Source: a candidate division FCPU426 bacterium
Lineage (GTDB): Bacteria; Oederibacteriota; Muellerivitia; Muellerivitales; Muellerivitaceae
Reading direction: 5' to 3'
DNA length: 64,000 bases
Assembly (NCBI GenBank): GCA_963796105.1
Contig: CAWCKJ010000004.1
Coordinates: 160,001 to 224,000, forward strand
Shown: piece after piece, positions 39,566-57,304 of the stretch
Numbering within the stretch: the stretch's first letter is position 1
Layout: every line of letters starts with the position of its first letter
Made by a program: the position numbers and the translations under genes
The notes under the pieces: generated by a model
Told to the model about the DNA's origin: nothing
The model's database searches: none
Seen by the model: the letters and a program-made list of their open reading frames with translations, nothing else

Positions 39566-41944
39566 TTAAAACCGAACTTCGTAACTCAACTCAATGAATT
39601 GGTTCACCAACGTCCCCTGGACAGGGTTTGTTGGCATCATATTTCCAGAAGTCCAATCATAATCAATGAAGATATTGGAATTCCGGTTGACCTTGAAAAC
39701 ATTAGAAAATCTCCAGCTTTGAATTTTCCCGTCCAATTGGACAGGCGAGTAAAGGGTTAGGTCCGCATTATCATACAAATAGGAATACCGGACCCAAAGC
39801 GTGCCACCCAAACCTTCCTCGATCCCCTTGGCGGTCTGTTGGCTGAAAGCCGCCGAAATTTCCCATACTGGCAGTAGATCCACTCGGATTCCCCCGATGA
39901 TCCAAGTACTATCGAGAGAGCCCAAATCGCTGGTGGTCCGCTCGTATCGGACGTTGGTTCCCAATTCCAAATCCCGATCCCAACCCAAATAAGGGCCCAG
40001 GTTGAAGGAGGGGCCCACGTTGATGTATGTGAAATTACGAGTCAACACTTGGTTCGTGTTATACCAGCCGTCCACCGGAGCATAACCAGTTCCTGTGGTA
40101 TTGATCACCATATTGCCGGTCATTTCTTTGACCAAATAGGCAGACCCCTTAATTTTCAGTGAATCCTTATTTAAAGTTTTCAGATCAATATCCAACCCGA
40201 ACCCTTCCCGATTCGGAGTAGCCAATCCATAAGGGAAAGTATTGTCCTGGGTGCGATCGTAATACCCGAAAATGGCTCCAGGCCGTGGTACATTCGATAG
40301 GAAATACTGGCTCCTTAGAACCGGATCATAAAGATCAGGAGAAGTAATAAAACTTGAGCCAGAGTTGGCCGCATCTTGGCGAGTTTGAGCCAGGGGCGAA
40401 TAATAATAAGGCCCAACATTCAAATAATTTAACGAAACCTTAGAATTAGCGAATTGCAGATAAGGCCCTGCCATGACCGCAAAATCCCCGATCATGCGGT
40501 TCGGATCTCTCTTGTCGTCCTGGTAACGGGAATAAGCGTATTCAGCCATTCCGCCAACGTAGCACTCATCCCCCAGCCCTACCTTTACATCAGGCCTTAC
40601 ACTTCCGGTCAGATATTGATGGGCCCAAGTCAATGGATTCATCGGATCGTACGGGGAACCAGGTTGCTCGGTATCCAACGGTTCGTCCAGGATGAGACCG
40701 AAGGTATCCAGACTCAGTTGGAGGGTATTGGAACCCAACATCCATTGAGGGGTCTTCAAACCTGCTGATCCGCCGAAAATCCAATCCGTGTATTGGTTGG
40801 GGCCGTAATACCAGCCCCCGTTGTCACTAAACCCATTTCGAATCATATGTATGAAAGTTGAAACCTTCAGTAATTCCAACAGATCCGAATCAGGCCACAT
40901 CAAGGATTCCCCTAGTCTCAAACCACGGAAAGGCCAATAAGGCTCGTTGTTGAAAAAACTCTCGTACTTCTCGCGGGAGTCCCACCTGGCCCACATTTCG
41001 GGCATGTATTTTAAATCCAACGTGTTGCGGTTCCACAAGGTGAAAGGAGTGTAAGCCTCGTCAAAATCACCTAAGGTAGCTGAGAGCCAGGAAGGATTAA
41101 AATCTAGGGATATACGACGGACACTGAATGAAAAATCAGAATTAGACGGTAAAAAATTTGAACCAATTCTAAAAATAACATTCCAGCGCACTTCTTTGGA
41201 GATTGTACCCTCGGGTTGTAAATCTAAAAAACCATAAGTATTCCTCGCGCCCATCAATCCAACATCATCGCCGGAAGATTGTTGTGTAAATCCAAGCCCC
41301 AGTCCATAACCATGCACCGCGATGGTTGGATATTGGGAAATTCCCTTAAGCTTCTTCCTCAAATCATACTGCTCGGATTCAAAGTCGGCAGTTTTAGTCT
41401 TGAGAGCCTTCAACTTGTCTTTCAATTCCTGAAGCTCATAACTGTATGCTTCTTCTAGGCTATGAAGGGCTTTGGCGGCTTTCAGGCGGGCTTGCTCCCG
41501 TTCGGCCGGCGTTGAAGCAACTGGTCCTGTGTTGGACGCCGGAGCCGCCTCAGTCTCTTGCGTCGGAAGCAGCATGTCTTCCTGATCGGAGGCACTTGGA
41601 GTCACCGCCGCCTGAGCCAATATGATTGCACTGGAGGTTTTCTCCGCCTTTTGGATTAACTGGACCACATCGAAGCGGGTCAAACTGGATGGAGTAACAT
41701 CCTTGTTGGAAAGCCAACCTGCTTGGGCCAATTGTTTCAATTCTGTATAGGTGGGATCCCCAACTGATACAACGCCAAAAAGATTACTTGAGGGAATTCC
41801 AAGCGCAAACAACGGCATGCATAAAAATAAAATGAACGAGCAAAAAAATGGCCCCATTTGGGCAAATCGGAAATATTTGTTTTTTCTTACCACGATTCGC
41901 GAAGTCTCCTGATTAGAGTATTTTTCATCAGAAGGATGTTTCAC
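39566..41944 (-). CDS. Outer-membrane protein C: SLH-like N-terminus, coiled coil, putative beta-barrel (true start probably downstream)
   Basis: DPTYTELKQLAQAGWL..LTRFDVVQLI; LHSLEEAYSYELQELKDKLKALK; alternating beta strands; ends YEVRF. Confidence 0.7.
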   Translation of the reverse strand: MKHPSDEKYSNQETSRIVVRKNKYFRFAQMGPFFCSFILFLCMPLFALGIPSSNLFGVVSVGDPTYTELKQLAQAGWLSNKDVTPSSLTRFDVVQLIQKAEKTSSAIILAQAAVTPSASDQEDMLLPTQETEAAPASNTGPVASTPAEREQARLKAAKALHSLEEAYSYELQELKDKLKALKTKTADFESEQYDLRKKLKGISQYPTIAVHGYGLGLGFTQQSSGDDVGLMGARNTYGFLDLQPEGTISKEVRWNVIFRIGSNFLPSNSDFSFSVRRISLDFNPSWLSATLGDFDEAYTPFTLWNRNTLDLKYMPEMWARWDSREKYESFFNNEPYWPFRGLRLGESLMWPDSDLLELLKVSTFIHMIRNGFSDNGGWYYGPNQYTDWIFGGSAGLKTPQWMLGSNTLQLSLDTFGLILDEPLDTEQPGSPYDPMNPLTWAHQYLTGSVRPDVKVGLGDECYVGGMAEYAYSRYQDDKRDPNRMIGDFAVMAGPYLQFANSKVSLNYLNVGPYYYSPLAQTRQDAANSGSSFITSPDLYDPVLRSQYFLSNVPRPGAIFGYYDRTQDNTFPYGLATPNREGFGLDIDLKTLNKDSLKIKGSAYLVKEMTGNMVINTTGTGYAPVDGWYNTNQVLTRNFTYINVGPSFNLGPYLGWDRDLELGTNVRYERTTSDLGSLDSTWIIGGIRVDLLPVWEISAAFSQQTAKGIEEGLGGTLWVRYSYLYDNADLTLYSPVQLDGKIQSWRFSNVFKVNRNSNIFIDYDWTSGNMMPTNPVQGTLVNQFIELSYEVRF

Positions 41945-44177
41945 AAGTCACCTTCCATATTTGCTCACGCCTGTCAAAGCTCGGTACATTGCTCCAGGAA
42001 TATGTATTGATGAAGCAGTCCCCATGAATCTCAAATGTGCGGCTCACGGGGCATTTGAACCCAAAAGCCCAGGAAGTTTTCGTGAAATCCAGGAGTTGGA
42101 GATTGTATAAAGCGTTGGCCGGTAGCGTATTGAAATAGGAATAATATTCAGCCAAAGTCGGGTAATCCGACGATTGGGCAAACGCCGAGTTGTTCAAGGT
42201 ATATTCGTAACCGCTGGACTCGGCCTGTTCGTAGGCCGCCGAGAGAATCAAGCCTTCAAATAGAGGGACCTGGGGGAAGGGGCCGATGTCCGCGCAGACG
42301 ATAAGGGTATCAACGGTAAAAGGGCCTAACCCGGTCCCACCGTCGGTGGCTTGGTGTTTGTAATCACCTGATAACGCGCAGGTCTTGGGCGCCCCCTCTA
42401 GGGCCTTTGCCAGGTTCGCAGTCAATGCCCCTTCGTACCCTTCAAAATTCCTGGTATTAGTCACGGGTTGGCCGGAGTCCGCCGGAAGTACCTCATTTCC
42501 ATTGCCCGTCAAGACATAATTTGGCTGGAGTTCCTTCATTTTCAATATGTAGGACGCCTGGGGTTTCAGCCATCCTCCTTTTCCAATGTCGGCAGTGAAT
42601 CCAAGGACCGCGCCTTCCCGGTTAGGGGTCGCGTCCCCGTAAGGCAGGATGTTCTCACTCATTCGGTCATAGGGTTCGAATATCTGTTGGTTGATCCCTT
42701 GGAAGGCAAACCCAGACAGGTAATCATTAAGCCCGTCATCCAAAAGGTTGAAACCACTGCCTGCCAAATCCGGCGAAAATCGGTTGGTTTGAGCCCCCGG
42801 AGAGTAGAAATAAGGACCATTACTGAGATATTTGGCCGATAACTGGATTCCCTCGACATTAATAGAACCTTGGGTCAACACCGCCCAATCCTTGAGGGTG
42901 TCCTGGGGGTTGATGGTATCGTTCTGGTATTGGCTGGAAGCGTACTCACCGGAAGCCGAAACGCTGACTGAGTTATCAAGAGGAACATTTGCGCGGGCCG
43001 AAAGGCTGCCCACCTGGTATTGCCGGTTAGGCGGGGTAATACCTGGATAATAGTCTGCGGAATTGGAATCCGCCCAAAGCAAAAGCCCGCTCCCCTTAAA
43101 TTCTAACTGGTTCTTGAAGAGATCGATAGAAGCCTCACTGCCAGCGTAATCGTTGGCGAAAATGTATTGGGATTCCGGCGTAACAATTCCGCCCATTGCC
43201 TGGAGATGGAAGGAACTGAAAACCTCGCTGTTGGAAACCACTTGGTCGGAAGCCCCCTCAAAACCCCTCATGTGCCAGTCAGGTCCATGGTCCATATAAA
43301 CTAATTCCTCAATATCTTTTCGAGCCCTATTAAAAGAAGTCGGCTCGATCATGGTGTAGACGGGAATTTCGTTGTTCCAAAAGGTTAAGGGAGTATAGCT
43401 TCTGTAGAAATCGCCCACCGTGAGGTTCGCCACATCGTTGGTGTTATTGAGGGAAATCCACCTCAAGGTGCAGTTAGGGTTGATAGGTTCCCCGTAAATC
43501 ATTCCGACGGTGCGGGTGAGACGCAAATCCGCGTTAAACAGAACAAATGGAACCGGAATGCTTTTCAATCGTATATCCCCGAACAGGATATCGTTGTAAT
43601 CCATGGGGCCATAAACCGCGTTGGTTCCAAAACCGCGGAAAGTGTTGAAATAAGCCCTCGCGTAACCAGTCAGGTTGGTCCCGGTTTGTTTGAGGTATTC
43701 CTGCTGGAGGATCGAGAATTTTTCATTGCGGTGCCGGATGTCGTAAAACCTGTCGTCCAAACGAACCACATCCAAATCCATGACTTCCAATTCGGGCTTG
43801 AACTCATCCACCAGTTTTTGAAGGTTTCGATCCGGGAGGCCGGGGGAAGTTTTTAAATTAGAACCGCCCGAAGTTACCAACTCTTGGTCTTGAGATGTCC
43901 AGGACCGAACAGCCAAACTGGTCATCTGGGCCACTTCCAAATTGGTCATTTGGTTAACTGGTTTCACCGGTTGCGGGACCAAACCAGCATCTACTATTTC
44001 CTGAATGGCAGAATTAACCCATCCATCCCTGTCTGAGGTCGTCAGCGCCCCATGAACGGCAAGGGCTGGTAGCACAGGGCAAGACAGAAAAACAATAGTG
44101 TAAAGAAGAACTTGCTTCACACCGATCAAGTTTTTAATTTTTTCTTTTAACACTTTTATCTTTGCCCCTTGTGTCAA
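41928..44177 (-). CDS. Outer-membrane protein B: SLH-like N-terminus, coiled coil, putative beta-barrel (start may be GTG 44120)
   Basis: DGWVNSAIQEIVDAGLV..MTNLEVAQM; LQKLVDEFKPELEVMDLDVVRLD; ends CETSF. Confidence 0.7.
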   Translation of the reverse strand: MTQGAKIKVLKEKIKNLIGVKQVLLYTIVFLSCPVLPALAVHGALTTSDRDGWVNSAIQEIVDAGLVPQPVKPVNQMTNLEVAQMTSLAVRSWTSQDQELVTSGGSNLKTSPGLPDRNLQKLVDEFKPELEVMDLDVVRLDDRFYDIRHRNEKFSILQQEYLKQTGTNLTGYARAYFNTFRGFGTNAVYGPMDYNDILFGDIRLKSIPVPFVLFNADLRLTRTVGMIYGEPINPNCTLRWISLNNTNDVANLTVGDFYRSYTPLTFWNNEIPVYTMIEPTSFNRARKDIEELVYMDHGPDWHMRGFEGASDQVVSNSEVFSSFHLQAMGGIVTPESQYIFANDYAGSEASIDLFKNQLEFKGSGLLLWADSNSADYYPGITPPNRQYQVGSLSARANVPLDNSVSVSASGEYASSQYQNDTINPQDTLKDWAVLTQGSINVEGIQLSAKYLSNGPYFYSPGAQTNRFSPDLAGSGFNLLDDGLNDYLSGFAFQGINQQIFEPYDRMSENILPYGDATPNREGAVLGFTADIGKGGWLKPQASYILKMKELQPNYVLTGNGNEVLPADSGQPVTNTRNFEGYEGALTANLAKALEGAPKTCALSGDYKHQATDGGTGLGPFTVDTLIVCADIGPFPQVPLFEGLILSAAYEQAESSGYEYTLNNSAFAQSSDYPTLAEYYSYFNTLPANALYNLQLLDFTKTSWAFGFKCPVSRTFEIHGDCFINTYSWSNVPSFDRREQIWKVTCETSF

Positions 44178-44180
44178 TTC

Positions 44181-46985
44181 CTAAAACGAGAAAATAAACA
44201 TCGAATAGACCTGGTCGGCCTGGTAGCTGTTGGCCGAAACGTAAAGATCGCGGAATGTCACATGCTTATACCGCATTTCTAATTTTCCGCCGCCCCAAGG
44301 AAAATCATAGGCCATACCGGCCCCGAGAGAATCCGTCCGGTAGTCCACTTTGGGAATGGTGTAATTAGATTTCCACTGCTCCAATCCATAGTCTGCCAGG
44401 AGGTTGACCCATTTAAAAATGCCGTACATGAAAGCCGCGTCGTAAACGGTCTGGTCGAATAGACACGGGATATGGGCCAAGGTCTGTCCCGGACGGTTGG
44501 GGTCGGCTACGTTCGCAAGGGTTGGATTGTTCGTGTCACCCGATACCTCATTGTCAGTGAAAAATAAACCCGCGTAGAAAGGGGTATTCAAGCCGAGCAT
44601 TTTATTGAGCTGCAATTTCGCGGTAACCGTGGCGTAGTTAAAGGTTTTTATATGGTCTAGGGAAGTAAAAGTCACGCCGTTATCAGGAGAAGTAACCGAC
44701 TGTGAGCCTGGAATGTAATTTAGGATCAAAGGCACACGCTCCGCGATGGGAGGACCAAAACGGATAACATCGGGATTGAAAGTATTGCCGTCGCCCCGAG
44801 AAGACTCGATATTACTTACATAGGCTGCTCCCGCAGGATGCATCCCTTGGTATCCATCCCAAACGTTACTGCCGAAAATACCAGTGCTTTCAGGATAAAA
44901 AACCGATATCAGGTTGTAGGCCTCAACGGATTTATATCCCATTTCATCGGACACGGCTTGGTACTCGGTTTTCCGGGCCACATCCATATTGATGATCAAA
45001 TCGTCCAGGAAGCTTGGCAGGGATTTGGTCCAGCTTTCCTGGCGGCCCTTCCAACCCAATGTGGCCCGCCATCCATAGCGGTCACTGATCAAGTCATCCG
45101 CCATGCCCACAAATCCAAACTGGTCGTTCATGACGGGATTATTGTTATTGGTATTGGCCGGGAAACCGAATTTCCAAAATTGGATCCCCGTCAGGAGAAC
45201 TTTACTCTGGAAGTTTGAGTACTGCTCGCTAATGGCCGTGTAATAAAGCGTGAGGGGATAAAGGCTGAGGGCTGCTTGGCCCGCCGGCGCGCTTAAAGTT
45301 TGCGCCAGTGCGATATTCCCGGAATGAAAGCTGACCGGCCCTCCATCGTTATAAACACCGGTATAAAGATGGGTATAACCGCCCTCGATATCCAAAAACG
45401 CTGGTTTCAGGTCAAATCCCAAATCCGCCGCGTAAGATTTCATATCCATGTTCCCTTGCGTCAAGGGGGCGGAAAGCCCGTTATCGTTCACCCACAACGC
45501 CGAAAGGGAAGAAAGTAAAAACCCATTGGCCCAAGGTTGGGCGTACTTAATCCCCTCCTCCCATTGGTGGGTATCACCATCCACTCTCCCGAAGAGCATG
45601 TTCATTTTCGCGTCTTTGCTCACCAAGGGAAGGCTCGTCCCGACCATGTAAAGACCGTCGAAAACCTTCGTGGTTTGGTTTTGGGTGATCCAGGAAGTGG
45701 AACTGGGCACGTATCCCAAATTGGTCATATAGTCATCCCAGGTTTTCTGGTTCTTATCCCCGGAATATCTTTTCACGTCAAAAGGATCCTCGAAACGCAG
45801 GGCATTCGCCGCGCCGCCCCTCGTGAAGTCCCCGTAGTCAGTGTCCCAAGTGTAGGATTCCACGGCAATGGTACTGCTCCAATGGCCCAACATCCCATCC
45901 AGGTTATAGTTCAAGGAAGGGGCGCTGATATACAGGGAGGCCGGGGCTGAGGTAGCGTTTGAGGACTGAAGGGTGCTTTGTAAATTAACGGTATAAGAAC
46001 CCTTCCCTCCTAAATCACTCCAAACGCCTAAAGTGAAATCATTCGCCACCGCGGTGGCGCTGACGATAGTAATTCCTGACAGATGAAAGTTCTCCGCCTT
46101 GACGTCGGCCTCATAAATGAAATGGGGGGAAGTCGAGGATTTGTTGGACTTGCGAAAAATGGAGTTGATGTCGTCCTGTGTTGATTGGAGGGTTTCCAAT
46201 TCTTTTTCCTGGTCCTGAAGGCGGTAATCCAGCAGGGCCATCCGCGTCCGAAGATAATCCGACTCCTCGTCGAGGATCTTGAGAAGCGCGTTAATTTCAG
46301 TCTCAATATCGGTGTTGGCGGGCTGAGCCGGTATCGAGGCGGAGCCCACTTGCGCGTCAACCCATTGCTGTTCCGCCTGCGTCAGCCTGGCCTTCACTCG
46401 CGTGAGGTAATCCCGAATGGAGGGATTGGGTTGTTTCTGGATGAACTGGGTCAAAGCTACCGCGCCTTCCTTTGTTTTTCCCGCCATGACCTGGCAATAA
46501 CCCAGGTAATAGTAGGCCATCGCGATATTGGGGTTTTGCTGGATGACAGCCTGGAATTTGGGAATGGCTTGCGCGTACTGCTTTTGCTGATAAAGGGAGA
46601 ACCCTTGCACAAAATCTTGGTTCTGAGCCGGTGTTGCCACCGTTACTGCCGCCGCTGGAGCCGGATTTGCGGTTAAGTCGGTAGTAGACGCGGCTTGGGG
46701 CGCCAATGCGACTTGCAACTCTTTGGAAGTTTGGTAATTAGCCTTGGCCTTTTCAGTGAAGAAACCAAGCTCCAGTTTCGTCACTACCCGGCCCTGGTCG
46801 AGAACAGCTTGGTCTTGGGGGTCCAAAAGGCCGTAGGCTTCCAACGCTTTTACCCGCTGGTAAAGGGGCTGGTCGGAGGTCACATTATCCGAAGGATTGG
46901 CCCAAAGGCTTGTCGCTAGTGTCGTTGTACATAGAAGGGATAAGAAAAAAATACCCTTAAATGATTTTTTTAATCGTCGATTCAA
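44181..46985 (-). CDS. Outer-membrane protein A: SLH-like N-terminus, TPR insert, coiled coil, putative beta-barrel
   Basis: Signal peptide; DQPLYQRVKALEAYGLL..VTKLELG; TPR FVQGFSLYQQKQYAQAIPKFQAVIQQNP..AYYYLG; coiled coil; ends FIFSF. Confidence 0.7.
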   Translation of the reverse strand: MNRRLKKSFKGIFFLSLLCTTTLATSLWANPSDNVTSDQPLYQRVKALEAYGLLDPQDQAVLDQGRVVTKLELGFFTEKAKANYQTSKELQVALAPQAASTTDLTANPAPAAAVTVATPAQNQDFVQGFSLYQQKQYAQAIPKFQAVIQQNPNIAMAYYYLGYCQVMAGKTKEGAVALTQFIQKQPNPSIRDYLTRVKARLTQAEQQWVDAQVGSASIPAQPANTDIETEINALLKILDEESDYLRTRMALLDYRLQDQEKELETLQSTQDDINSIFRKSNKSSTSPHFIYEADVKAENFHLSGITIVSATAVANDFTLGVWSDLGGKGSYTVNLQSTLQSSNATSAPASLYISAPSLNYNLDGMLGHWSSTIAVESYTWDTDYGDFTRGGAANALRFEDPFDVKRYSGDKNQKTWDDYMTNLGYVPSSTSWITQNQTTKVFDGLYMVGTSLPLVSKDAKMNMLFGRVDGDTHQWEEGIKYAQPWANGFLLSSLSALWVNDNGLSAPLTQGNMDMKSYAADLGFDLKPAFLDIEGGYTHLYTGVYNDGGPVSFHSGNIALAQTLSAPAGQAALSLYPLTLYYTAISEQYSNFQSKVLLTGIQFWKFGFPANTNNNNPVMNDQFGFVGMADDLISDRYGWRATLGWKGRQESWTKSLPSFLDDLIINMDVARKTEYQAVSDEMGYKSVEAYNLISVFYPESTGIFGSNVWDGYQGMHPAGAAYVSNIESSRGDGNTFNPDVIRFGPPIAERVPLILNYIPGSQSVTSPDNGVTFTSLDHIKTFNYATVTAKLQLNKMLGLNTPFYAGLFFTDNEVSGDTNNPTLANVADPNRPGQTLAHIPCLFDQTVYDAAFMYGIFKWVNLLADYGLEQWKSNYTIPKVDYRTDSLGAGMAYDFPWGGGKLEMRYKHVTFRDLYVSANSYQADQVYSMFIFSF

Positions 46986-47037
46986 AATAGCCTCGGGTCA
47001 AAAAGTTAAACCGGTTTCAAGCCCTCATTAACATTTA

Positions 47038-47808
47038 TCAAAAAAACTCGACTTCATCCACCCAGTAATCGATGTTGTAACTTCCCGCGGTGTTGCCCGC
47101 GTTATGGGTCCATTCAATACCCAAAATTTCCTTCAGGTGCTCTGTGAATTCGGGGGGCGTGATGGTGTTGCCCCATCCGGGCTGCCGGGTGAGGTTCGCG
47201 AAAGGCAATGTCACCAAGGTCCATTCCCCTTTGGAGGCAAGGTCATAACCGAAATTATTGTAACAACCGTCCAAGCAAGTTCCTCCAGCTGAAGAGGGCA
47301 TGATGGGCGCGATGGAAATGGCGAACCGTCTGGAGGGAGCCTGATCCCCCGCGGGATACTTATAATAGAACTGGATTCCTTTAAAGGGACTGGCATCGTA
47401 ATAACCGGTTGGTTTTAATTTGCCGTCCAAAAGGAAAGCGGGATAGGTATTATCCCCCTTATTCACCAGCTTGCCGAAAACATGGGCGGCCATCTTGGTG
47501 CCATTGGCTCCGCCCGCCGTCACGAAAACCTCGTTGATGGTGTTTCCGCCGTAAGTATTTGTGCTCCAGGCCCCGTTCGTGGAGCCGTAGAGTTTGGGGT
47601 TCATATGAACCGAACCATCCTCAAAATTCCCGATGATTTTTTGTTCGGGAGCCACGACCACTTTGGGCTGGGAGTTCTCGGGGTTGACCAATCCATCCGT
47701 CAGGGGCTCGTTCTTCGAACCTTCGTTCACCAGGACCGCCCCGCATCCTGCCAGTAAACCAAACACGAGGAAGCAAGGAAAGAGGATGGAATATTTCAAC
47801 TTGGTCAT
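47038..47808 (-). CDS. Lipoprotein with CBM11/CIA30-like carbohydrate-binding domain
   Basis: Lipobox LLAGC; IGNFEDG, YDASPFKGIQFYYK, EWTLVTLPFANL..PGWG, YWVDEVEFF. Confidence 0.75.
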   Translation of the reverse strand: MTKLKYSILFPCFLVFGLLAGCGAVLVNEGSKNEPLTDGLVNPENSQPKVVVAPEQKIIGNFEDGSVHMNPKLYGSTNGAWSTNTYGGNTINEVFVTAGGANGTKMAAHVFGKLVNKGDNTYPAFLLDGKLKPTGYYDASPFKGIQFYYKYPAGDQAPSRRFAISIAPIMPSSAGGTCLDGCYNNFGYDLASKGEWTLVTLPFANLTRQPGWGNTITPPEFTEHLKEILGIEWTHNAGNTAGSYNIDYWVDEVEFF

Positions 47809-47921
47809 AGCCACCTTTTTTGAACGAATGGCCCGGATAGGCATCAGCCTGGAAAGCATCCTTAGGCGAGGCGGGCTTATTCTACTAAAAAGCGACGAGA
47901 AGCCGAAATGATTTTCTTTGT

Positions 47922-47956
47922 TGAAACTCGCTGAAATGAGTTTAATGAAGTTTCAA
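47922..47956. promoter_or_regulatory. Putative transcription-factor operator, copy 1
   Basis: TGAAAC-tcgc-TGAAAT-g-AGTTT-a-AT-gaag-TTTCAA in a divergent promoter region; matches 54565-54598. Confidence 0.65.
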
Positions 47957-48169
47957 ATGGATAAAGATGATTTTCATCACTAAACCGTTTTGACCTAAAG
48001 AATCGGGCTCTTGCTTCACGGTTCAAGGTAAACGAACCGGGACAAAATTTTTCCAGACTGAAAATTCAACGAAGTAAACATTGGACGCCATCCCGGGTAA
48101 AGGTAAACTAATGCCCGTTTCGCCCCTATTCGACAACTTTTTTCAAATCTCACATAAAGGAGCTGGTTT

Positions 48170-50158
48170 ATGAAAAGGATGATCAAGTTGTTCCTCCTCC
48201 TTCTTCTCTTCATGGGCCCTTCCTATTTGAGTGCTCAGACTCCGGTTGTTTCAATCAACGTTGACTCCTCCGTGACCCTCAACAGTTTCCGCCCCATCAG
48301 TATTTTCGGGAACAACACCAACGGCTGGGCCAGCCCTGTGCCGGTCAAGGACAAGATCCAAGCGGCCGGCAACTTTCTCCTTCGTTATCCCGGCGGCTCT
48401 TGGGGGGATATTTTCCATTGGAACGGAACAGGTTCCTTCAACAAGGAAGGCTGCTGGGTACCGGACAACAAGGAATACTCCCCAAGCTTTATCGAGCCAG
48501 AGGATGGCTCCACCTATTGCTCACGCAAAGCCATTGATGGGGACAAATCCACCGCTTGGCGTTCCAACCCGGATACCGACTTTCCCCAAGCCCAATGCTT
48601 GATCCTGGACCTCGGGGAGAAAAAATCCGTGGACGCGGTGACTCTGTCCTGGGGCGACGTAGCCAACAAGGACTGGCCTTACGCTAAAAAGTTCACCATC
48701 CAATATTGGGATCCCAAGGAAGGCCGGCAATGGATGCCTTATGGCGCCGAGAAGAACGCCTGGCTAGATACCACCGCATTGGACACGATTGGAAACAAAG
48801 GCGCCCAGGACGTGACCTTTGAACCGGTTACAACCCAATATTTAAGGATTTTAATGACTGAAAGCTCCGCGGGAAAAACAGGCGCTTATTCCGTGGCTGA
48901 GGTTAAGGCATTTTCCTCCGGATCGGATCTTTCTATTGCTAAAGACGGGGCCATCGCCTCCAGCACTCACCCCGCCTCTGAACGCAGTCCCCGAAAAATC
49001 TTTGGGTTCGAGGAATACATGGATTTCATGAATTCCCTCACCCCTAAAGGAATACCCCTGATCATCGTGAATTTCGGTACAGGCACTCCCCAAGAAGCCG
49101 CGTCCTGGGTCCACTACGCCAACCGCGTGAAACATTACGGCATCAAGTATTGGGAAATCGGAAATGAGATGGGTGGGCATTGGGAGGCCGGAGGGCCAGT
49201 CAACATCCAGGATTACGCCAGGCGGTATATCGAGTTTTATGAGGCCATGAAGGCTGAGGACCCCACCATCACCCTGGTGGCCCAGACCGGCGCCACAGAC
49301 TCCTCGGAACTTTATGACGGTAATTTATGTCTTCAGGATTTCGTGGATCGCCTGGCGAAAGATAAAAAAGAAAAATATCTCGAATGCTTCTCGATCCACC
49401 AATATCCCAATTGGGGACAGTCGGTACGGGATTTGCTGAATTCCCCGAAATCGGGAATGGATGACCTGGAAAAATCCATCCAAAAGCAACTCGCGGCCTA
49501 TCCTTCCCTGGCGAATGTCCCTGTTTGGATCAGTGAGTTCAACACCTCGGATCATGTCACGCCCGGGGACATTTCGGTTCACTTGGAAAATGGTCTGTGG
49601 CTAGCCCAGTATCTGGTGGAATTCATCCGTCACTTTGGAAGCCGGGGCTATGCCACCCTTTGGGACACCTTGAACGGTGGGAGCGCGATAAAGGATCCTA
49701 AAGGCGGTGACCATGGATACTTGCAGGCGGAGGAGGGCCCATACCAATACCAGGAGCGCGCCGATTACTGGACCATGAAGATGATGACCAATGATTGGTC
49801 CAAGCCGGGTGATGACCAGATCCATCAAATGGTGGACGCCCAAAGTTCCGAACCCTTTTTGGCGACTTACGCTGATTACAGGCCGGACGGCACCCTAAGC
49901 CTTTTAGTGATAAACAAGAGCCAGGACACGGCCTTTAAATCCTCGATCAACCTGAAAAATTTCAAACCCAACCCCAAAGCCAAGGGCTGGAGTTTTAATA
50001 AAACCAACTATATTTGGGAAACTGAAGTCTTGCCTTACCATGCCGACCCCGATGAACCGCCAAAATCGTTTAATCTGCATGGCGGAACCAATGGTTTTAA
50101 TTGCGATTTCCCTGCTTATTCCATTACAGTACTTCAATTCAACCCTGAGAAACCATGA
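48170..50158 (+). CDS. Secreted clan GH-A glycoside hydrolase (GH51-like) with inserted F5/8 type C (CBM32-like) domain
   Basis: Signal peptide; LLRYPGGSWGDIFHW, IVNFGTGTPQEAASWV, YWEIGNE, VWISEFN; insert AIDGDKSTAWRS..LILDLGE..TQYLRI..SVAEV. Confidence 0.75.
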   Translation: MKRMIKLFLLLLLFMGPSYLSAQTPVVSINVDSSVTLNSFRPISIFGNNTNGWASPVPVKDKIQAAGNFLLRYPGGSWGDIFHWNGTGSFNKEGCWVPDNKEYSPSFIEPEDGSTYCSRKAIDGDKSTAWRSNPDTDFPQAQCLILDLGEKKSVDAVTLSWGDVANKDWPYAKKFTIQYWDPKEGRQWMPYGAEKNAWLDTTALDTIGNKGAQDVTFEPVTTQYLRILMTESSAGKTGAYSVAEVKAFSSGSDLSIAKDGAIASSTHPASERSPRKIFGFEEYMDFMNSLTPKGIPLIIVNFGTGTPQEAASWVHYANRVKHYGIKYWEIGNEMGGHWEAGGPVNIQDYARRYIEFYEAMKAEDPTITLVAQTGATDSSELYDGNLCLQDFVDRLAKDKKEKYLECFSIHQYPNWGQSVRDLLNSPKSGMDDLEKSIQKQLAAYPSLANVPVWISEFNTSDHVTPGDISVHLENGLWLAQYLVEFIRHFGSRGYATLWDTLNGGSAIKDPKGGDHGYLQAEEGPYQYQERADYWTMKMMTNDWSKPGDDQIHQMVDAQSSEPFLATYADYRPDGTLSLLVINKSQDTAFKSSINLKNFKPNPKAKGWSFNKTNYIWETEVLPYHADPDEPPKSFNLHGGTNGFNCDFPAYSITVLQFNPEKP

Positions 50159-51718: not shown

Positions 51719-54433
51719 CTAATTCTTATTAGAACTAAATTCCATTTTGGCCGACTTTAGCCCTTTCGCCTTTGCGGCAAGGGTAATCTTCCCCGGCTTT
51801 TCCCCAGCCCCCATATAAACCGCGCAGAGACCGTTGAAGGCCTTCCTCTTATTGGATTTGTCAGGCTCGTGGCTGGAAGGGTCTCCGTTGCCGACCCCCG
51901 CGATCCGGCCTTGCCCCCGCACCTGGAAATGAACCTCGTTGTCAGCCGTCGGGACCAATCGCCCCTTCGCGTCGAGGATTTCGACCGTCACCGGCGTTAC
52001 ATCTTCCCCATCCGCCATGAGTTCTTTGCAATAGGGGGTCAGCCTAATGGCTGCCGCGGGACCGGTGGTTTCCACCCTTGTTTCCTCGGCAAATATCCCT
52101 TTCCGGTATGCTTTCGCGGTTAATATCCCTGGCTCGTACCAGACCTTCCATTCCAAGTGCCCGTTTCGAGACATTTCCTTGATTCCCTTGGATTTGCCGT
52201 TGAGGAAAAGTTCCACTTGGTCGTGGTTCGTGTGGCACCAGACGTCAATTTGATTCCCTTCCATACCCTTCCAATTCCAATGGGGGAACAGGTGCAAGAC
52301 GGGTTTGTCCCCCCACCAGGCCCGGTAATAATGGAAGTTATCCTTGGGAAAACCGCATATATCAATTATCCCGAAATGGGAGTTGATGCAGGGCCAGCCA
52401 TAGGGGGTGGGTTCGCCCTTGTAGTCGAATCCCGTCCAAATATAAACACCGGCCATATGGGACCGGTCAGCCGCTACCCTCCAAGCGTTCTCGGCGGGCG
52501 ATGACCACTCGGTATGGTTCACATCGTAGGCGCTCACATAACCCTTTTTCCGGTCAGTTTGGTAAATCCCCCTGGTCGAGACGGTACTGGCCGTCTCGCT
52601 TCCGAACATGGGCATGCGCGGGAATTTTTTCCGGAAGGGATCATATTGTAGGATGTTGTAGTTGAAGCCTTGTACGTCTACCACGTGTGTCAACCCTTCC
52701 CCCCAGCCTCCGTTCATGGCGCAGGTGATGGGCCGGGTCTTGTCGAATTTCAGAAGGATTTTCCTCATGGCCAGGCCCATCTTCCTGCCCTCTTCCTTGC
52801 CTTGCTTCCCTTCCTCGTTGCAGAGGGACCAGGCGATGATGGAAGGGTGGTTCCGGTCCCGGAGCACCATGCTGGTGACCTGCGATAGGATTTCCGGCGA
52901 GTCCCCCAAGCGGCGGTTCTCATCCAAGACGAGCATGCCTAACCGGTCGCACTCCTCCAGAAGTTCCGGGGCAGGCGGATTATGGGAACAGCGGTAGGAA
53001 TTGGAGCCCATTTCCTTGAGCTTTTCCAGCCGGTAGGTGAAAAGCCGGTCAGGCAAGGCGACTCCCACCCCGGCGTGGTCCTGGTGATTGCAGGTTCCCT
53101 TGAGCAGGACGTGTTTTCCATTCAGGAAAAAACCCTTGTCCTTATCGAAGCGGATGGACCGCACTCCGAAGGAAGTCTCCACCCTGTCCACCAAACGGCC
53201 GTCCCTTTCCACCTTCGTCACCAACTTATATAAATAAGGATTTTCCAAAGACCAAAGAAATGGGTTGGCGATGTCTCCCTTTTGAACGATTTCCTTTCGC
53301 CCGCCTTGAGGAATTTTTACCTGGCTGTAAAGCTTGAGGACTTTATTCCCCTTAGTGTCCATGATTTCCGAGGTCAATCGAAAGGAAGAAGCGGCTTGGG
53401 CCTTATTGGTGACTGCGGTTTGAATGGAAAGATCCGCCTTGGTTCCTTTTGGTTTCGAAACCACGTAAACTCCCCAGGGTTCCACGTACAGGGGATCGGC
53501 CTTGTTAAGCCAGACATGCCGGTAGATACCCCCTCCCTCATACCACCAGCCCTCATGGCCCCGCGCGTCCACTCTTACCGCCAGGACGTTCCTTCCGCCA
53601 TACATCACCTCGTCCGTGATATCGAACCGGAAGCTGGTATAGCCGCTCCGGTGGCGTCCCAGCAGTCGGCCATTCAGCCAGACCCGGCAGTTACGGAACA
53701 CCCCGTCGAAATCAATCCAAAGGCTTCTGCCCCGGTCCTCTTCCGGGACCTCGAAAGTCTTCCGGTACCAGCCGATGTCCTTGGGGAGATAGCCATGGGC
53801 GGGGTCGTCGGTTTTCCGGTCGAATTTCCCTTCCACCACGAAATCATGGGGCAGGTGGACATTCCTCCATCCTTGGTCTTTGAAATGATAGGAAGCCGGC
53901 CCTTGCCAGGTGGCCGGAGGCACGGGAAGCTCCAAATCGGCGCCTCCAATAAAGCCGTGGCCCCAGTAGCTTTTCACCAGGACAGCCAAATGGTTGGGCC
54001 CGCCCTCTTTCCAGGCTGAGTCCAATGGAACATCAAAAGGGTCGGTCCACAACTCGTGATGCAGAAGCTCCCGGCCGTTAAGATAGATGGTGCCGTCGTT
54101 GTTGATGGAGACGAAATGAAGCGTCCGGTTGGGGCCGGGAATTTCCGGCAGGAGGGTCCGGTACCAGGCAAAACCCTTTTTTTTATCGAAGGCATCCTTC
54201 CATGGCCGGATGGTCTTCCAGTTCCGGTCCGGAAAACCCGGGGCCGCCATTTTAAGATTTTTCGGTTCTTCCTCCCCGATTAACTGGTAGCGCCAATTCC
54301 TGATGGGAATGGAATAGGGATAACCCGGCAAATCCCCCAGGTGGAACCGCCAGTCGGAATCGAACCTCAACCGTTCCCTTGCCATTGATTTTGTGGCCGC
54401 TTTTTTCCGTGTCATAAAACCTCTAAAATTCAT
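51719..54433 (-). CDS. GH2 beta-galactosidase-like enzyme (DUF4982 type), cytoplasmic, with an extra nested jelly-roll domain
   Basis: WRNVHLPHDF, GWYRKTF, FDGVF, WWYEGGGIYRHVWL, GTCNHQDHAG, RCSHNPP, RDRNHPSIIAWSLCNE, FGSE, WTGFDYKGEP, GVGNGDP. Confidence 0.92.
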   Translation of the reverse strand: MNFRGFMTRKKAATKSMARERLRFDSDWRFHLGDLPGYPYSIPIRNWRYQLIGEEEPKNLKMAAPGFPDRNWKTIRPWKDAFDKKKGFAWYRTLLPEIPGPNRTLHFVSINNDGTIYLNGRELLHHELWTDPFDVPLDSAWKEGGPNHLAVLVKSYWGHGFIGGADLELPVPPATWQGPASYHFKDQGWRNVHLPHDFVVEGKFDRKTDDPAHGYLPKDIGWYRKTFEVPEEDRGRSLWIDFDGVFRNCRVWLNGRLLGRHRSGYTSFRFDITDEVMYGGRNVLAVRVDARGHEGWWYEGGGIYRHVWLNKADPLYVEPWGVYVVSKPKGTKADLSIQTAVTNKAQAASSFRLTSEIMDTKGNKVLKLYSQVKIPQGGRKEIVQKGDIANPFLWSLENPYLYKLVTKVERDGRLVDRVETSFGVRSIRFDKDKGFFLNGKHVLLKGTCNHQDHAGVGVALPDRLFTYRLEKLKEMGSNSYRCSHNPPAPELLEECDRLGMLVLDENRRLGDSPEILSQVTSMVLRDRNHPSIIAWSLCNEEGKQGKEEGRKMGLAMRKILLKFDKTRPITCAMNGGWGEGLTHVVDVQGFNYNILQYDPFRKKFPRMPMFGSETASTVSTRGIYQTDRKKGYVSAYDVNHTEWSSPAENAWRVAADRSHMAGVYIWTGFDYKGEPTPYGWPCINSHFGIIDICGFPKDNFHYYRAWWGDKPVLHLFPHWNWKGMEGNQIDVWCHTNHDQVELFLNGKSKGIKEMSRNGHLEWKVWYEPGILTAKAYRKGIFAEETRVETTGPAAAIRLTPYCKELMADGEDVTPVTVEILDAKGRLVPTADNEVHFQVRGQGRIAGVGNGDPSSHEPDKSNKRKAFNGLCAVYMGAGEKPGKITLAAKAKGLKSAKMEFSSNKN

Positions 54434-54564: not shown

Positions 54565-54598
54565 TGAAACAACATGAAATAAGTTTCATATATTTCAA
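54565..54598. promoter_or_regulatory. Putative transcription-factor operator, copy 2
   Basis: TGAAAC-aaca-TGAAAT-a-AGTTT-c-AT-ata-TTTCAA between the divergent GH2 and GH44 genes. Confidence 0.65.
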
Positions 54599-54715: not shown

Positions 54716-57304
54716 ATGCGTAAAATCCTTTTTTCATTCATAGCCGTCCTCATGATCCTGCCCAGTCTGGTCCGGGCGGATGAGGACATCGCCTTCTTCG
54801 GCCCCTGCTGGGCCGACGCCTCCGGCAAGGACGGCAAGGGCGGGGTCAGCATCCTTTGCGTGGGCGACCAGCACAAGTTCGTCCTGCGCCCCGATGTCGG
54901 CAAGGAAAAGATCGATCCCAAAACAATCGGGGACCATCCCGAATGGGTGATTTACGACGGGGAGGACTCCGGCAACTGCCTGTCCTTCGAGTTCGTTTCC
55001 GTCACCAGCGCCACTGACCAGTTCTGGGGTAAGCGTTGGGCGGGCGGCGGCATCGCCTTCAATAACTCCTGGGCTCCCATGGACCTCTCCCAGGCAAAGT
55101 ACATTGTGCTTTACGCCAGGTCCAACGACCCGGATATCGACATGAACCTGGCCGTGATCGGCAGCACGGATTCCTCCGCCACCGGCACCGTGAAACTTTC
55201 CGATTTCGCGGAGGGCCATAAAATCGCCGAGACCTGGACCAGGGTGGTCATTCCCTTCGCCTCGATCCCGGACCTCGCCAAGCTGGACGCCTCCCAAGTC
55301 AAGACCCTCCGTTTCGACCTGGCCGGAAGCTACCCGGACAACAAACCGGTTTACGTGCATCTGGATAAGATCTACTTCACGAACGCCCAACTCGTCACTC
55401 CAGTGGAGAACCTGGGCTGGCTGAGGGTGCCTGGCGGCGTGGAGGTGGTCTGGGACAAGTCCAACGACGAGGGCATCGAGAAATATTTGGTGACGGTGGA
55501 CGGAAAAGCGGCGGGACGGGTGGAAGGCGCCGCTAAAAGGAAGGTGAAGTTACCCCTTTCAGTCCTTCCAGGCACAGGCTCCCATGTGGTGGGTGTTGCC
55601 GCCTCCACGGGCAAACAGAATTCTTCCTATCAAACCGTAACTGTCACCGCGGCCCCCTCTGCCTCCGCGAAGGCCCAAGTGACCCTTTCCGGCGAGCTGG
55701 GCCACGCCATTTCCCCCTATATCTTCGGGTTCAATTACATGGCCCCCGGGAGCCTCAAGAAAGCCGGCGGGACCTTGAACCGGTGGGGGGGCAACGCCAC
55801 CACCAATTACAACTGGAAAGAGGATGCGGATAACCGCGGCGCCGACTGGTACTTCCTCAACACCTCCAAGGCGGATCCCGGCGCTCCCGAAAAGGACAAG
55901 CAATATTACAAATTCATCGAGGACACCTACAAGGGCGGTGCCGACCCCATCCTGACCATCCCCATCATCGGATGGGTAGCCAAGGCTCCCCCGAAAAACG
56001 GCCCTGAACTCTGCTCCTTCCCCACTGCCAAATACCCGAACCAGACCGGAAGCGACGGCCAGGGCGCGGGCAACGGCCAATTGCCCGGCAACAAACTCAT
56101 CTGGGACAACGACCCCAACTACAATTACGTCAAATCGGACCCGGCTTTCATGAAGGAATGGGTGGAGGCCTGCGTCAAGAATTTCGGCTCCGCCTCAAAG
56201 GGGGGCGTCAAGTTCTACCAGATGGACAACGAGCCGGGGTTGTGGTGCTGGAACCACCGGGATGTGAACCCCAAGGGCATCGGTTATGACGACCTAGTGG
56301 ACCTGAACGCCCAATACGCTGAGGCGGTGAAGTCCGCAGACCCCGACGCGAAAGTCATCGGATTCGTGGCCTGGGGCGCGAAGGAGTTGGCGGGATCCGC
56401 CTGGGACTACATGCCCGGAGGCGAGAAAGGTTACCAACTCGGGGAATCCGGCCTCAAGACCGAGGATCTGCGATGGACCGACCGGAAAGCACATGGGAAC
56501 GTTTCCCAGTTCGAGTATTTCCTCAGCGAGATGGCCAAGCGCTCCAAGAAAGCCGGTAAAAGGCTGATTGATTACGTGGATAACCACGGCTTCCCTGAGG
56601 TCTGGGGCAAGAACGGCAAGGGCGAGAAAGTGAACGTGCTGGGAGATTTCGCCTACGATCCGGTCTTGACCCCCAAGCAGTTCGACGCCTTGAGGATTTT
56701 CTACGACCCGACTTTCGAGAGTCCTGACAGCTGGTGCGCCCTGCCGGAATTGAAACCTTACCTTTGGGACCCCTGGGCCGGATTGATCCCTAAGATGAAG
56801 AAGATCATCGAAAAGACCTACCCAGGCACCAAACTGGCCATGACCGAGTATTACCCCTCCAGCTCGCATTACTATCACGGCGGCCTGCTGGAGGCAGTGA
56901 ACCTGGGCATCTTTATGCGGGAGGGCATGGACCTGGCTTGCGACTGGGGCAACGCCTGGGACGGCAACTATGTCTTCCTCGGACAGAAGCTCTACAGCAA
57001 CTACGACGACAAGGGTTCCAAGGTGGGGGGAAATTACGTGAATTGCACCAGCACTCATCCGGATCTTTATTCCTTCGCGGCCAAGGACAAGGCCAAAACC
57101 TATGTCATCCTGGTCAACAAGAACCACGACACCGACCTGGAGACCGTCGTGACATTGCCGGGCGCATCCACGAGTTATCACGTTTATACGCTGTCGGAGA
57201 CCCTGGGGAAGAGGTTGTTCGACTCGGGTGCCCGCGCGGCGTCAGGCGCGGAGCTGAAGATTGATGTGCCGGCCTTCTCGGCACTCTTGATCGTCGCGGA
57301 ATAA
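54716..57304 (+). CDS. Secreted GH44 endoglucanase/xyloglucanase with N-terminal CBM-like and Fn3-like domains
   Basis: ISPYIFG.N, NRWGGNATTNYNW, ADWYF.N, LTIPIIGWVAK, YQMDNEPGLW..HRDV.P, YPGTKLAMTEY. Confidence 0.88.
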   Translation: MRKILFSFIAVLMILPSLVRADEDIAFFGPCWADASGKDGKGGVSILCVGDQHKFVLRPDVGKEKIDPKTIGDHPEWVIYDGEDSGNCLSFEFVSVTSATDQFWGKRWAGGGIAFNNSWAPMDLSQAKYIVLYARSNDPDIDMNLAVIGSTDSSATGTVKLSDFAEGHKIAETWTRVVIPFASIPDLAKLDASQVKTLRFDLAGSYPDNKPVYVHLDKIYFTNAQLVTPVENLGWLRVPGGVEVVWDKSNDEGIEKYLVTVDGKAAGRVEGAAKRKVKLPLSVLPGTGSHVVGVAASTGKQNSSYQTVTVTAAPSASAKAQVTLSGELGHAISPYIFGFNYMAPGSLKKAGGTLNRWGGNATTNYNWKEDADNRGADWYFLNTSKADPGAPEKDKQYYKFIEDTYKGGADPILTIPIIGWVAKAPPKNGPELCSFPTAKYPNQTGSDGQGAGNGQLPGNKLIWDNDPNYNYVKSDPAFMKEWVEACVKNFGSASKGGVKFYQMDNEPGLWCWNHRDVNPKGIGYDDLVDLNAQYAEAVKSADPDAKVIGFVAWGAKELAGSAWDYMPGGEKGYQLGESGLKTEDLRWTDRKAHGNVSQFEYFLSEMAKRSKKAGKRLIDYVDNHGFPEVWGKNGKGEKVNVLGDFAYDPVLTPKQFDALRIFYDPTFESPDSWCALPELKPYLWDPWAGLIPKMKKIIEKTYPGTKLAMTEYYPSSSHYYHGGLLEAVNLGIFMREGMDLACDWGNAWDGNYVFLGQKLYSNYDDKGSKVGGNYVNCTSTHPDLYSFAAKDKAKTYVILVNKNHDTDLETVVTLPGASTSYHVYTLSETLGKRLFDSGARAASGAELKIDVPAFSALLIVAE

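Follow-up and report, generated by a model that had tools for sequence, protein, structure and literature searches.

A phased four-box promoter element shared by an outer-membrane barrel operon and glycoside hydrolase genes, and a candidate LacI-family reader

The carbohydrate locus and its two arrays

The window analysed here, a stretch of 64,000 nucleotides, belongs to a genome (G000) with a 4,978,684-bp assembly that is 96.8% complete. Its gene set comes from a simple home-made open reading frame caller (3,841 genes, 78.5% coding), and some of the regions treated below as intergenic contain missed genes. Two divergent promoter regions of a carbohydrate locus in the window carry the same element, among the following features:

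39566..44177, minus strand: second and third genes of the barrel operon (41928-44177 and 39566-41944), no Pfam family, gene order kept across the family
44181..46985, minus strand: first barrel protein, with TPR-like repeats in a helical N-terminal region; likely target
47006..47019, unstranded: canonical CG-centred LacI-type operator with the same half-site as the arrays, between the lipoprotein gene and the first barrel gene
47038..47808, minus strand: lipoprotein-like first gene of the barrel operon, without a Pfam family; likely target
47879..47884, minus strand: presumed -10 hexamer of the lipoprotein-barrel operon, placed by conservation; array A ends 37 bp upstream
47922..47955, unstranded: four-box array A, between the lipoprotein-barrel operon and the CBM32/GH51-like gene; boxes 47922-27 and 47932-37 forward, 47940-45 and 47950-55 reverse, centre GA
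47981..47991, unstranded: second, different CG-centred motif of the AAACCGTTTT type, just beyond array A
48081..48109, plus strand: presumed -35/-10 pair of the CBM32/GH51-like gene, 17-bp spacer, in a conserved block
48170..50158, plus strand: secreted protein with an F5/8 (CBM32-type) domain and a weak GH51-like catalytic region; possible target
51719..54415, minus strand: GH2 beta-galactosidase (NCBIfam GalA above cut-off); likely target
54565..54597, unstranded: four-box array B, between GH2 and GH44; boxes 54565-70 and 54575-80 forward, 54583-88 and 54592-97 reverse, centre AA
54675..54683, plus strand: presumed extended -10 of GH44, 80 bp downstream of array B
54716..57304, plus strand: GH44 endoglucanase/xyloglucanase-family enzyme; likely target

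The initial annotation spoke of three outer-membrane proteins. This description stands for the first, which is predicted to form a large C-terminal outer-membrane beta-barrel: its model (43-sequence alignment, mean pLDDT 69) finds outer-membrane barrels in Foldseek, none of them a close relative. The second and third proteins belong to no Pfam family, and modelling covered the first only. For the gene called GH51-like, what remains of the label is a weak local resemblance of residues 275-371 to GH51 arabinofuranosidases (E about 5e-10) and nothing stronger, to which the F5/8 (CBM32-type) domain can be added. Both assignments beside array B, GH2 and GH44, hold.

The motif claimed for both divergent promoter regions is real at its exact coordinates. 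In the window the pattern occurs on the plus strand at 47922-47956 and 54565-54598 only, and 100 dinucleotide shuffles gave no match. The whole 4,978,684-bp assembly holds two matches, both within the window, a count that is circular on its own because the pattern was built from those two copies. The TGAAA pairs 10 bp apart and their mirrored half, as first described, can be refined to four 6-bp boxes (TKAAAC) laid out forward-forward-reverse-reverse at a 10-bp period, 34 bases in total. Over 37 arrays, the centre is 2 bp long in 23, 1 bp in 10 and 3 bp in four, and it is CG in two; the box period is 10 in 31 and 11 in six, and conservation is lowest in the fourth box. The palindrome TGAAAC-N12-GTTTCA alone is little enriched among 31 genomes (16 sites vs 12 for the reversed control), and therefore the inner box matters.

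Recurrence of the element across the family

With a simple four-box score the two window sites reach 24 and 23 of 24, and five shuffles of all intergenic DNA reach at most 20. Because this score was derived from the window sites themselves, independent tests were sought. In G001, a genome of the same genus, every box of array A is unchanged and 4/4 bases of the first spacer differ; array B keeps its first three boxes there, and the fourth is degraded. A weight matrix trained on nine sites, all from other genomes, ranks array B (33.1) first and array A (25.2) second in G000. Sites before a 1717-aa secreted protein, a GH5 gene and xylose isomerase (xylA) come next, and at a score of at least 21 there are five matches in G000 vs one in the reversed genome.

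Across the 31 family genomes, a three-box pattern with one mismatch allowed gave 29 matches vs two for the reversed pattern. About 17 of the 29 are intergenic and beside carbohydrate or large secreted genes; most of the others fall in coding sequence and were counted as chance. The array beats all 40 shuffles upstream of the lipoprotein gene in 14/32 cases, GH44 in 9/21, GH2 in 7/9, GH5 in 3/3 and the sugar-binding protein gene in 6/28, in lists that take in orthologues and paralogues, operon-internal genes and divergent pairs counted twice (from each side). Enrichment near CAZyme and sugar genes, for which the initial annotation had advised looking, is thus seen as arrays at GH44, GH2, GH5, sugar-binding-protein and barrel-operon promoters of the family. 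The two objections it raised against its own motif also have an answer: a frequent occurrence in random AT-rich intergenic DNA is countered by counts above the shuffled and reversed controls, and a lack of conservation in orthologous promoters by boxes that are kept while spacers change. Coverage is uneven. The four-box array was not found at the GH44 promoter of G017, and G004, in which the XylR-like protein described below was not found, contributes one of the 37 arrays (score 17, L019).

The sequence evidence supports one shared regulatory site for the barrel operon and the hydrolases. The barrel operon had been tied to glycan use, and this is upheld: across the family the element recurs at orthologous promoters of the barrel operon, GH44, GH2, GH5 and the sugar-binding protein gene. 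A link between the barrel operon and xyloglucan or xylan use is, at the level of sequence, well supported. The gene set of the locus (GH44, GH2, a YicI-like GH31, GH29, GH5, xylA and xylB) fits, by established enzyme specificities, the breakdown of xyloglucan and xylan, which makes xylose or a xyloglucan fragment the likely inducer. Regulation and gene order may in this way assign an otherwise unannotated outer-membrane barrel operon of an uncultured family to plant hemicellulose use.

At least three further paralogous operons of a lipoprotein plus three barrel proteins occur in the genome (G000:C7:29955-53870, C3:8260-16817 and C4:349148-359663). The C7 copy shares its locus with GH44, GH35, GH29, an AraC gene and a third xylR paralogue, and the four-box array is absent from this barrel/GH44 locus.

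An XylR-like LacI regulator and its CG-centred operator

G000 encodes eight LacI proteins. The candidate reader of the array is an XylR-like protein, G000:C10:130101, with paralogues at C3:897874 and C7:31492; it lies beyond the window, in line with the earlier proposal that the regulator is encoded elsewhere. The gene order is xylA (TIGR02631 above cut-off), this lacI gene, a sugar-binding protein and xylulokinase (xylB). The XylR-like protein combines an N-terminal LacI helix-turn-helix with a sugar domain like that of periplasmic binding proteins (PF00356, 51 bits; PF13377, 109 bits; both above cut-off). The YPAL hinge, a LacI/GalR family motif as described in PMC3875437, is intact in the family orthologues compared, including one that has E after Y with the pattern intact. 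When GTDB representatives were searched with the XylR-like protein, only distant LacI proteins (at most 37% identity) were found outside the family among 80 loci.

This gene and a CG-centred operator travel together. Among 23 family xylA loci, 18 have this lacI within 1.5 kb, and the operator is present in 18/18 of these and in 0/4 of those without a neighbouring lacI; the 23rd locus is contig-truncated and has the operator. In five genomes (G022, G042, G043, G016 and G011) the xylR gene closes the barrel operon, with the operator upstream of xylR itself. Three of them (G022, G042 and G043), in which xylA lies a few kilobases from the barrel-operon xylR, are among the four genomes whose xylA has no neighbouring lacI. 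The strict CG operator pattern occurs in 18/22 genomes with the XylR-like regulator vs 1/9 without it (Fisher p about 0.0005, which is overstated as kin genomes are not independent), and it has 64 sites in the family genomes vs 17 for the reversed control. The genomes without XylR are smaller, less complete and related, so that this presence profile overstates independence. These comparisons give good confidence that the CG-centred operator belongs to the XylR-like protein.

The xylA and xylR operators are canonical, that is, even palindromes with a central CG, and so is the site at 47006-47019 of the window, which the initial annotation did not mention. Its core, AACCGGTT, precedes the first barrel gene in 4/27 loci examined (G019 and G006 included), and G001 carries a one-base variant. 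Strict CG-centred operators of the XylR type also stand before giant secreted proteins of 1,490-2,506 aa (G000:C3:805053, C4:1247089, C11:10407 and C12:258046), and the regulon would therefore be wider than the sugar locus.

Several further features of these loci were seen. One copy of a 302-aa transposase gene lies just upstream of the xylA promoter (G000:C10:127837-128745) and another (C10:170581-171489) between an array-like site at C10:170486 and a secreted-protein gene fragment. At L069/L105 (G016:C19), a xylA-linked paralogue has TA for KA in its recognition helix, and the operator bases beside the CG are changed; the outermost extra box is altered in the same way. This is a single case, and G010 has a similar box without the protein change. 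In a divergent xylR clade of about 50% identity (L072-L074, in G011, G012 and G017) xylA has two or three separate CG operators, which replace the phased extension. The xylR of G042 consists of two overlapping open reading frames (L136:14430-15499), possibly through a frameshift or assembly error.

Candidate readers of the array, possible modes of action and known systems

A central CG is found in 1173/1303 LacI motifs, with a spacing that is usually constant, according to the survey in PMC4052901. The four-box array departs from the canonical LacI operator in both respects, the central CG and the constant spacing of inverted halves. Its half-site nevertheless points to the XylR-like protein. 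Reverse boxes with five or six of 6 bases matching were counted by offset in 22 xylA/xylR operators: nine have one at +18, nine at +28 and seven at +29, and the other 16 offsets hold 0-4 each; +18 and +28/29 are the positions of array boxes 3 and 4. The gene xylR thus carries both a CG-centred operator and phased extra boxes upstream, which bears on the suggestion in the initial annotation to look for the site before a transcription factor gene. A half-site model with 18 CG operators as its sole training set, arranged as four boxes, was used to rank 2,696 intergenic regions. Its top six are, in order, site A, GH5, xylA (a region that sits in the training set), site B, the 1717-aa secreted protein and the sugar-binding protein, whose gene lies just past the window end. 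At a score of at least 23 there are eight strand-hits vs one reversed, and a model made from the half-site of another LacI did not reproduce the top-six ranking. In G000 the xylA promoter has its four-box match immediately 3' of TATAAT.

The base preferences of boxes 1 and 2 in the 37 arrays mirror the half-site of the CG operator (G/T alternation at position 2, C at position 6). Intermediate forms, in which the array geometry surrounds a central CG, stand ahead of the barrel gene in G019 and of GH44 in G046. At the latter gene the CG operator stands just before the start codon, where orthologues have an upstream array, which suggests a common function for both site types. In 19/29 loci of a second LacI of the lineage, tandem boxes with a period of 10-11 bp precede its gene. 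Against the assignment to XylR, the other five strict CG operators in G000 have no comparable extra boxes (two have a single 5-of-6 box), and the half-site is short and AT-rich, so likeness between the sites of two proteins could be chance. On this sequence evidence the four-box motif most likely works like an extended LacI operator with an atypical layout. Our main reading, to which we give a probability of roughly 0.55, is that the array is the operator of the LacI-family XylR-like regulator beside xylA, which would keep the barrel operon, GH44, GH2, GH5 and the sugar-binding protein repressed until a xylose-type sugar is present. This names a candidate regulator together with about six direct targets per genome.

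The second LacI, C4:365464, is encoded beside a paralogous lipoprotein-barrel operon and is a second LacI regulon with tandem half-sites: a conserved TGAAAGC direct repeat lies at G000:C4:366500-366570 (orthologues L212-L241), and this upstream repeat often has a CG-centred site nearby.

The position of the arrays bears on both reader and mode of action. The xylA/xylR operators sit at the presumed transcript start and the arrays upstream of the presumed -35s. Box 1 is 56-115 bp upstream of the -10 (picked by eye) in 32/34 curated promoters, at distances of 56, 68-73, 75-81, 83-87 and 104-115 bp without strict helical phasing. The -35 matches the consensus at a mean of 3.1 of 6 positions with an array (n=13) vs 2.6 without (n=5). 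Since the -35 is not weaker with an array and the distances are not strictly phased, activation is supported by position alone. The account of C. bescii in PMC8579813 has all LacI sites overlapping promoters or 5' UTRs and treats a position upstream of promoters as the usual place of activator binding. A promoter scan found nothing useful. A conserved CCGAAATG block at window 47903-47910 lies 19 bp ahead of box 1 of array A, in overlap with the presumed -35. It could represent this -35 or else a fifth box.

The same position could also mean that a separate activator, with a half-site like that of XylR, reads the array at about -50 to -100 before the barrel, GH44, GH5 and sugar-binding-protein genes and binds over the xylA and xylR operators as well. 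We consider this unlikely, although it is the alternative to be taken most seriously. It would account for arrays upstream of the presumed -35, with box 1 at 84-87 bp from the -10 in 9/32 promoters, and for a centre that is variable and not CG; the regulator census in G000 took in 11 Pfam families and sigma factors, with LysR, TetR, MarR, RpiR, LytTR, XRE and sigma-54 activators outside it. But two proteins with identical half-site degeneracy would be required, the extra boxes move together with the xylR gene, and neither the loosely phased distances nor the -35 boxes, no weaker with an array, are what such an activator would lead one to expect. The regulator genes recognised in 22 locus stretches annotated by best hit are xylR and one AraC gene only. 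Another LacI is a considerably less probable reader, and the most plausible one would be C3:234489, which has the recognition helix VSVATVSR and looks like a global carbon regulator. Orthologues 73-95% identical occur in 25/30 other family genomes (one split across contigs), and no autoregulatory site of its own is visible. Yet it was not found in the array-bearing genomes G010 (97% complete) and G005 (80%), and it is present in 7/9 genomes without XylR, a group in which the CG operator pattern occurs in one of nine. C4:365464, as a third LacI candidate, has a half-site that ends in G and does not fit the arrays. The gene of the global LacI (C3:234489-235526; L187-L211) encodes a longer loop behind the recognition helix.

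AraC-family sensors of about 600 aa would offer an attractive geometry, as the two helix-turn-helix motifs of one monomer could read boxes 10 bp apart and activate through the array. G000 has seven AraC proteins, six of these sensor genes adjoin large secreted carbohydrate enzymes, and AraC-type regulators in C. bescii bind upstream of promoters in the account of PMC8579813. Among the matches listed for 40 AraC loci in 13 genomes, however, there is no orthologue common to all array-bearing genomes, the G043 copy has close orthologues in G000 and G042 only, and one borderline array-like site lies just outside an AraC gene; promoters beside three of these sensor genes in G000 carry a different AT-rich repeat (by eye). 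Activation by these sensors is accordingly improbable. DeoR-family sites are direct repeats phased at 10 bp, and the initial annotation had been reminded of them by the array. The tandem boxes at helical spacing agree with this, in a feature not specific to DeoR, and a DeoR-family site with tandem repeats is reported in PMC8579813. HTH_DeoR (PF08220) nevertheless has no match in the 96.8%-complete G000, with 13/14 control genomes positive, and the half-site of the arrays, different in this from DeoR tandem operators, matches the operator of the LacI-family regulator at xylA; the lead was dropped, a DeoR-family repressor being very improbable. Least credible of all is that the array is an ECF-sigma promoter or a chance AT-rich match. 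TGAAAC is the -35 of sigma-W/M promoters, CGTA follows it by 16 bp at the GH5 site, and G000 has 16 sigma-70-family regions. The four bases at the CGTA position differ at other sites, though, with no conserved -10 at 16-17 bp after TGAAAC, and the two-fold symmetry, box-by-box conservation and counts above shuffled and reversed controls speak against both promoter and chance.

In profile searches of G000, no GntR or SorC-type Sugar-bind proteins were found. The IclR matches are cross-matches with no true IclR among them, and neither ROK match is long enough to hold a helix-turn-helix. The OmpR, LuxR and CRP-family genes (three CRP-family helix-turn-helix domains above cut-off) and the ECF sigma genes that were inspected do not lie at sugar loci. 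The six AraC genes of about 600 aa (G000:C4:968482, 1221666, 1239844, 1426834 and 1434591; C7:41408) have a long uncharacterised N-terminal region, and several adjacent promoters show a TATAAA repeat with about 22-bp spacing (by eye).

If the XylR-like protein is the reader, it would bind the CG-less arrays as two dimers, each spanning a pair of boxes separated by one helical turn; this would explain a centre that is neither CG nor fixed in length. The simplest model would have one sign of regulation for the whole regulon. Since both site types seem to do the same job, repression without inducer is favoured and, given XylR, comes out somewhat better than even. Bound upstream of the -35, the protein could block the alpha-subunit contacts of RNA polymerase or a neighbouring activator, and xylose or a xyloglucan fragment would relieve this. 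Given the same assignment, activation with inducer is a minority prospect, and Cra-like activation without inducer slightly more doubtful still. We regard as rather improbable an inducer-driven switch. Without sugar, hinge-clamped CG palindromes at the transcript starts of xylA, xylR and the first barrel gene would be repressed; sugar would free the DNA-binding heads, and these would shift to the CG-less arrays, upstream of the -35, to switch on the barrel operon and the hydrolases. Such a switch, if true, would amount to an AraC-like change from repressor to activator on a LacI scaffold, possibly a lineage-wide habit, with a second LacI here also using tandem boxes.

A search of mainly open literature, supplements excluded, found no published description of this motif or of four-box LacI arrays. 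The proposed regulon logic resembles that of XynR, and the site layout resembles CytR and the cre-var of CcpA. XynR of Anaerocellum (Caldicellulosiruptor) bescii is a LacI-family protein encoded in the xylose-catabolic operon (PMC12285236, PMC8579813), and it is described as also controlling distant xylan-degrading enzymes and transporters, as the XylR-like regulon would (PMC12285236). Its operators are CG-centred with a similar GAAA/GTAA half-site (PMC12285236, Table 1), but the sites in that description are single 20-bp palindromes at promoters, and four-box CG-less arrays do not figure in it. CytR of Escherichia coli, in the account of PMC3454398, is a LacI-family protein whose half-sites may be directly repeated or inverted; in the inverted form the spacer varies, with an optimum of 10-13 bp when CRP is absent. 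It works by anti-activation from a position upstream of the promoter and requires flanking CRP sites. Array boxes 1 and 3 are 12 bp apart, within the optimal spacer range of CytR. CytR is not known to have the YPAL hinge, whereas the XylR-like candidate has one and also uses canonical CG operators; the candidate falls short of the CytR profile (NCBIfam NF008269, 193 bits vs a cut-off of 436) and so does not qualify as a CytR orthologue. CcpA of Clostridium acetobutylicum is described as a single LacI-family protein using both CG-type sites and non-canonical half-site pairs, the cre-var, which are two inverted 6-mers with a free spacer of 0-40 bp and are linked to repression and activation (PMC5263246). 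The present arrays differ from cre-var in their four boxes, fixed 10-11 bp period and narrow sugar regulon, with about six arrays per genome. Should the LacI assignment be true, CytR and CcpA would be joined by a third LacI protein that reads half-sites outside the CG-palindrome rule, in this instance with fixed helical phasing, and such CG-less arrays would escape standard palindrome searches.

The second CG-centred motif near array A, at 47981-47991, is likely the site of another LacI-family protein. Such a motif lies 21-41 bp before the array in 6/34 promoters: the distance is 36-41 bp in five lipoprotein promoters, and at GH5 it is 21 bp. Seven of 12 occurrences of the AAACCGTTTT type are intergenic, often ahead of large secreted genes, and further places include G000:C4:136409, C3:677016 and C9:126667, among others.
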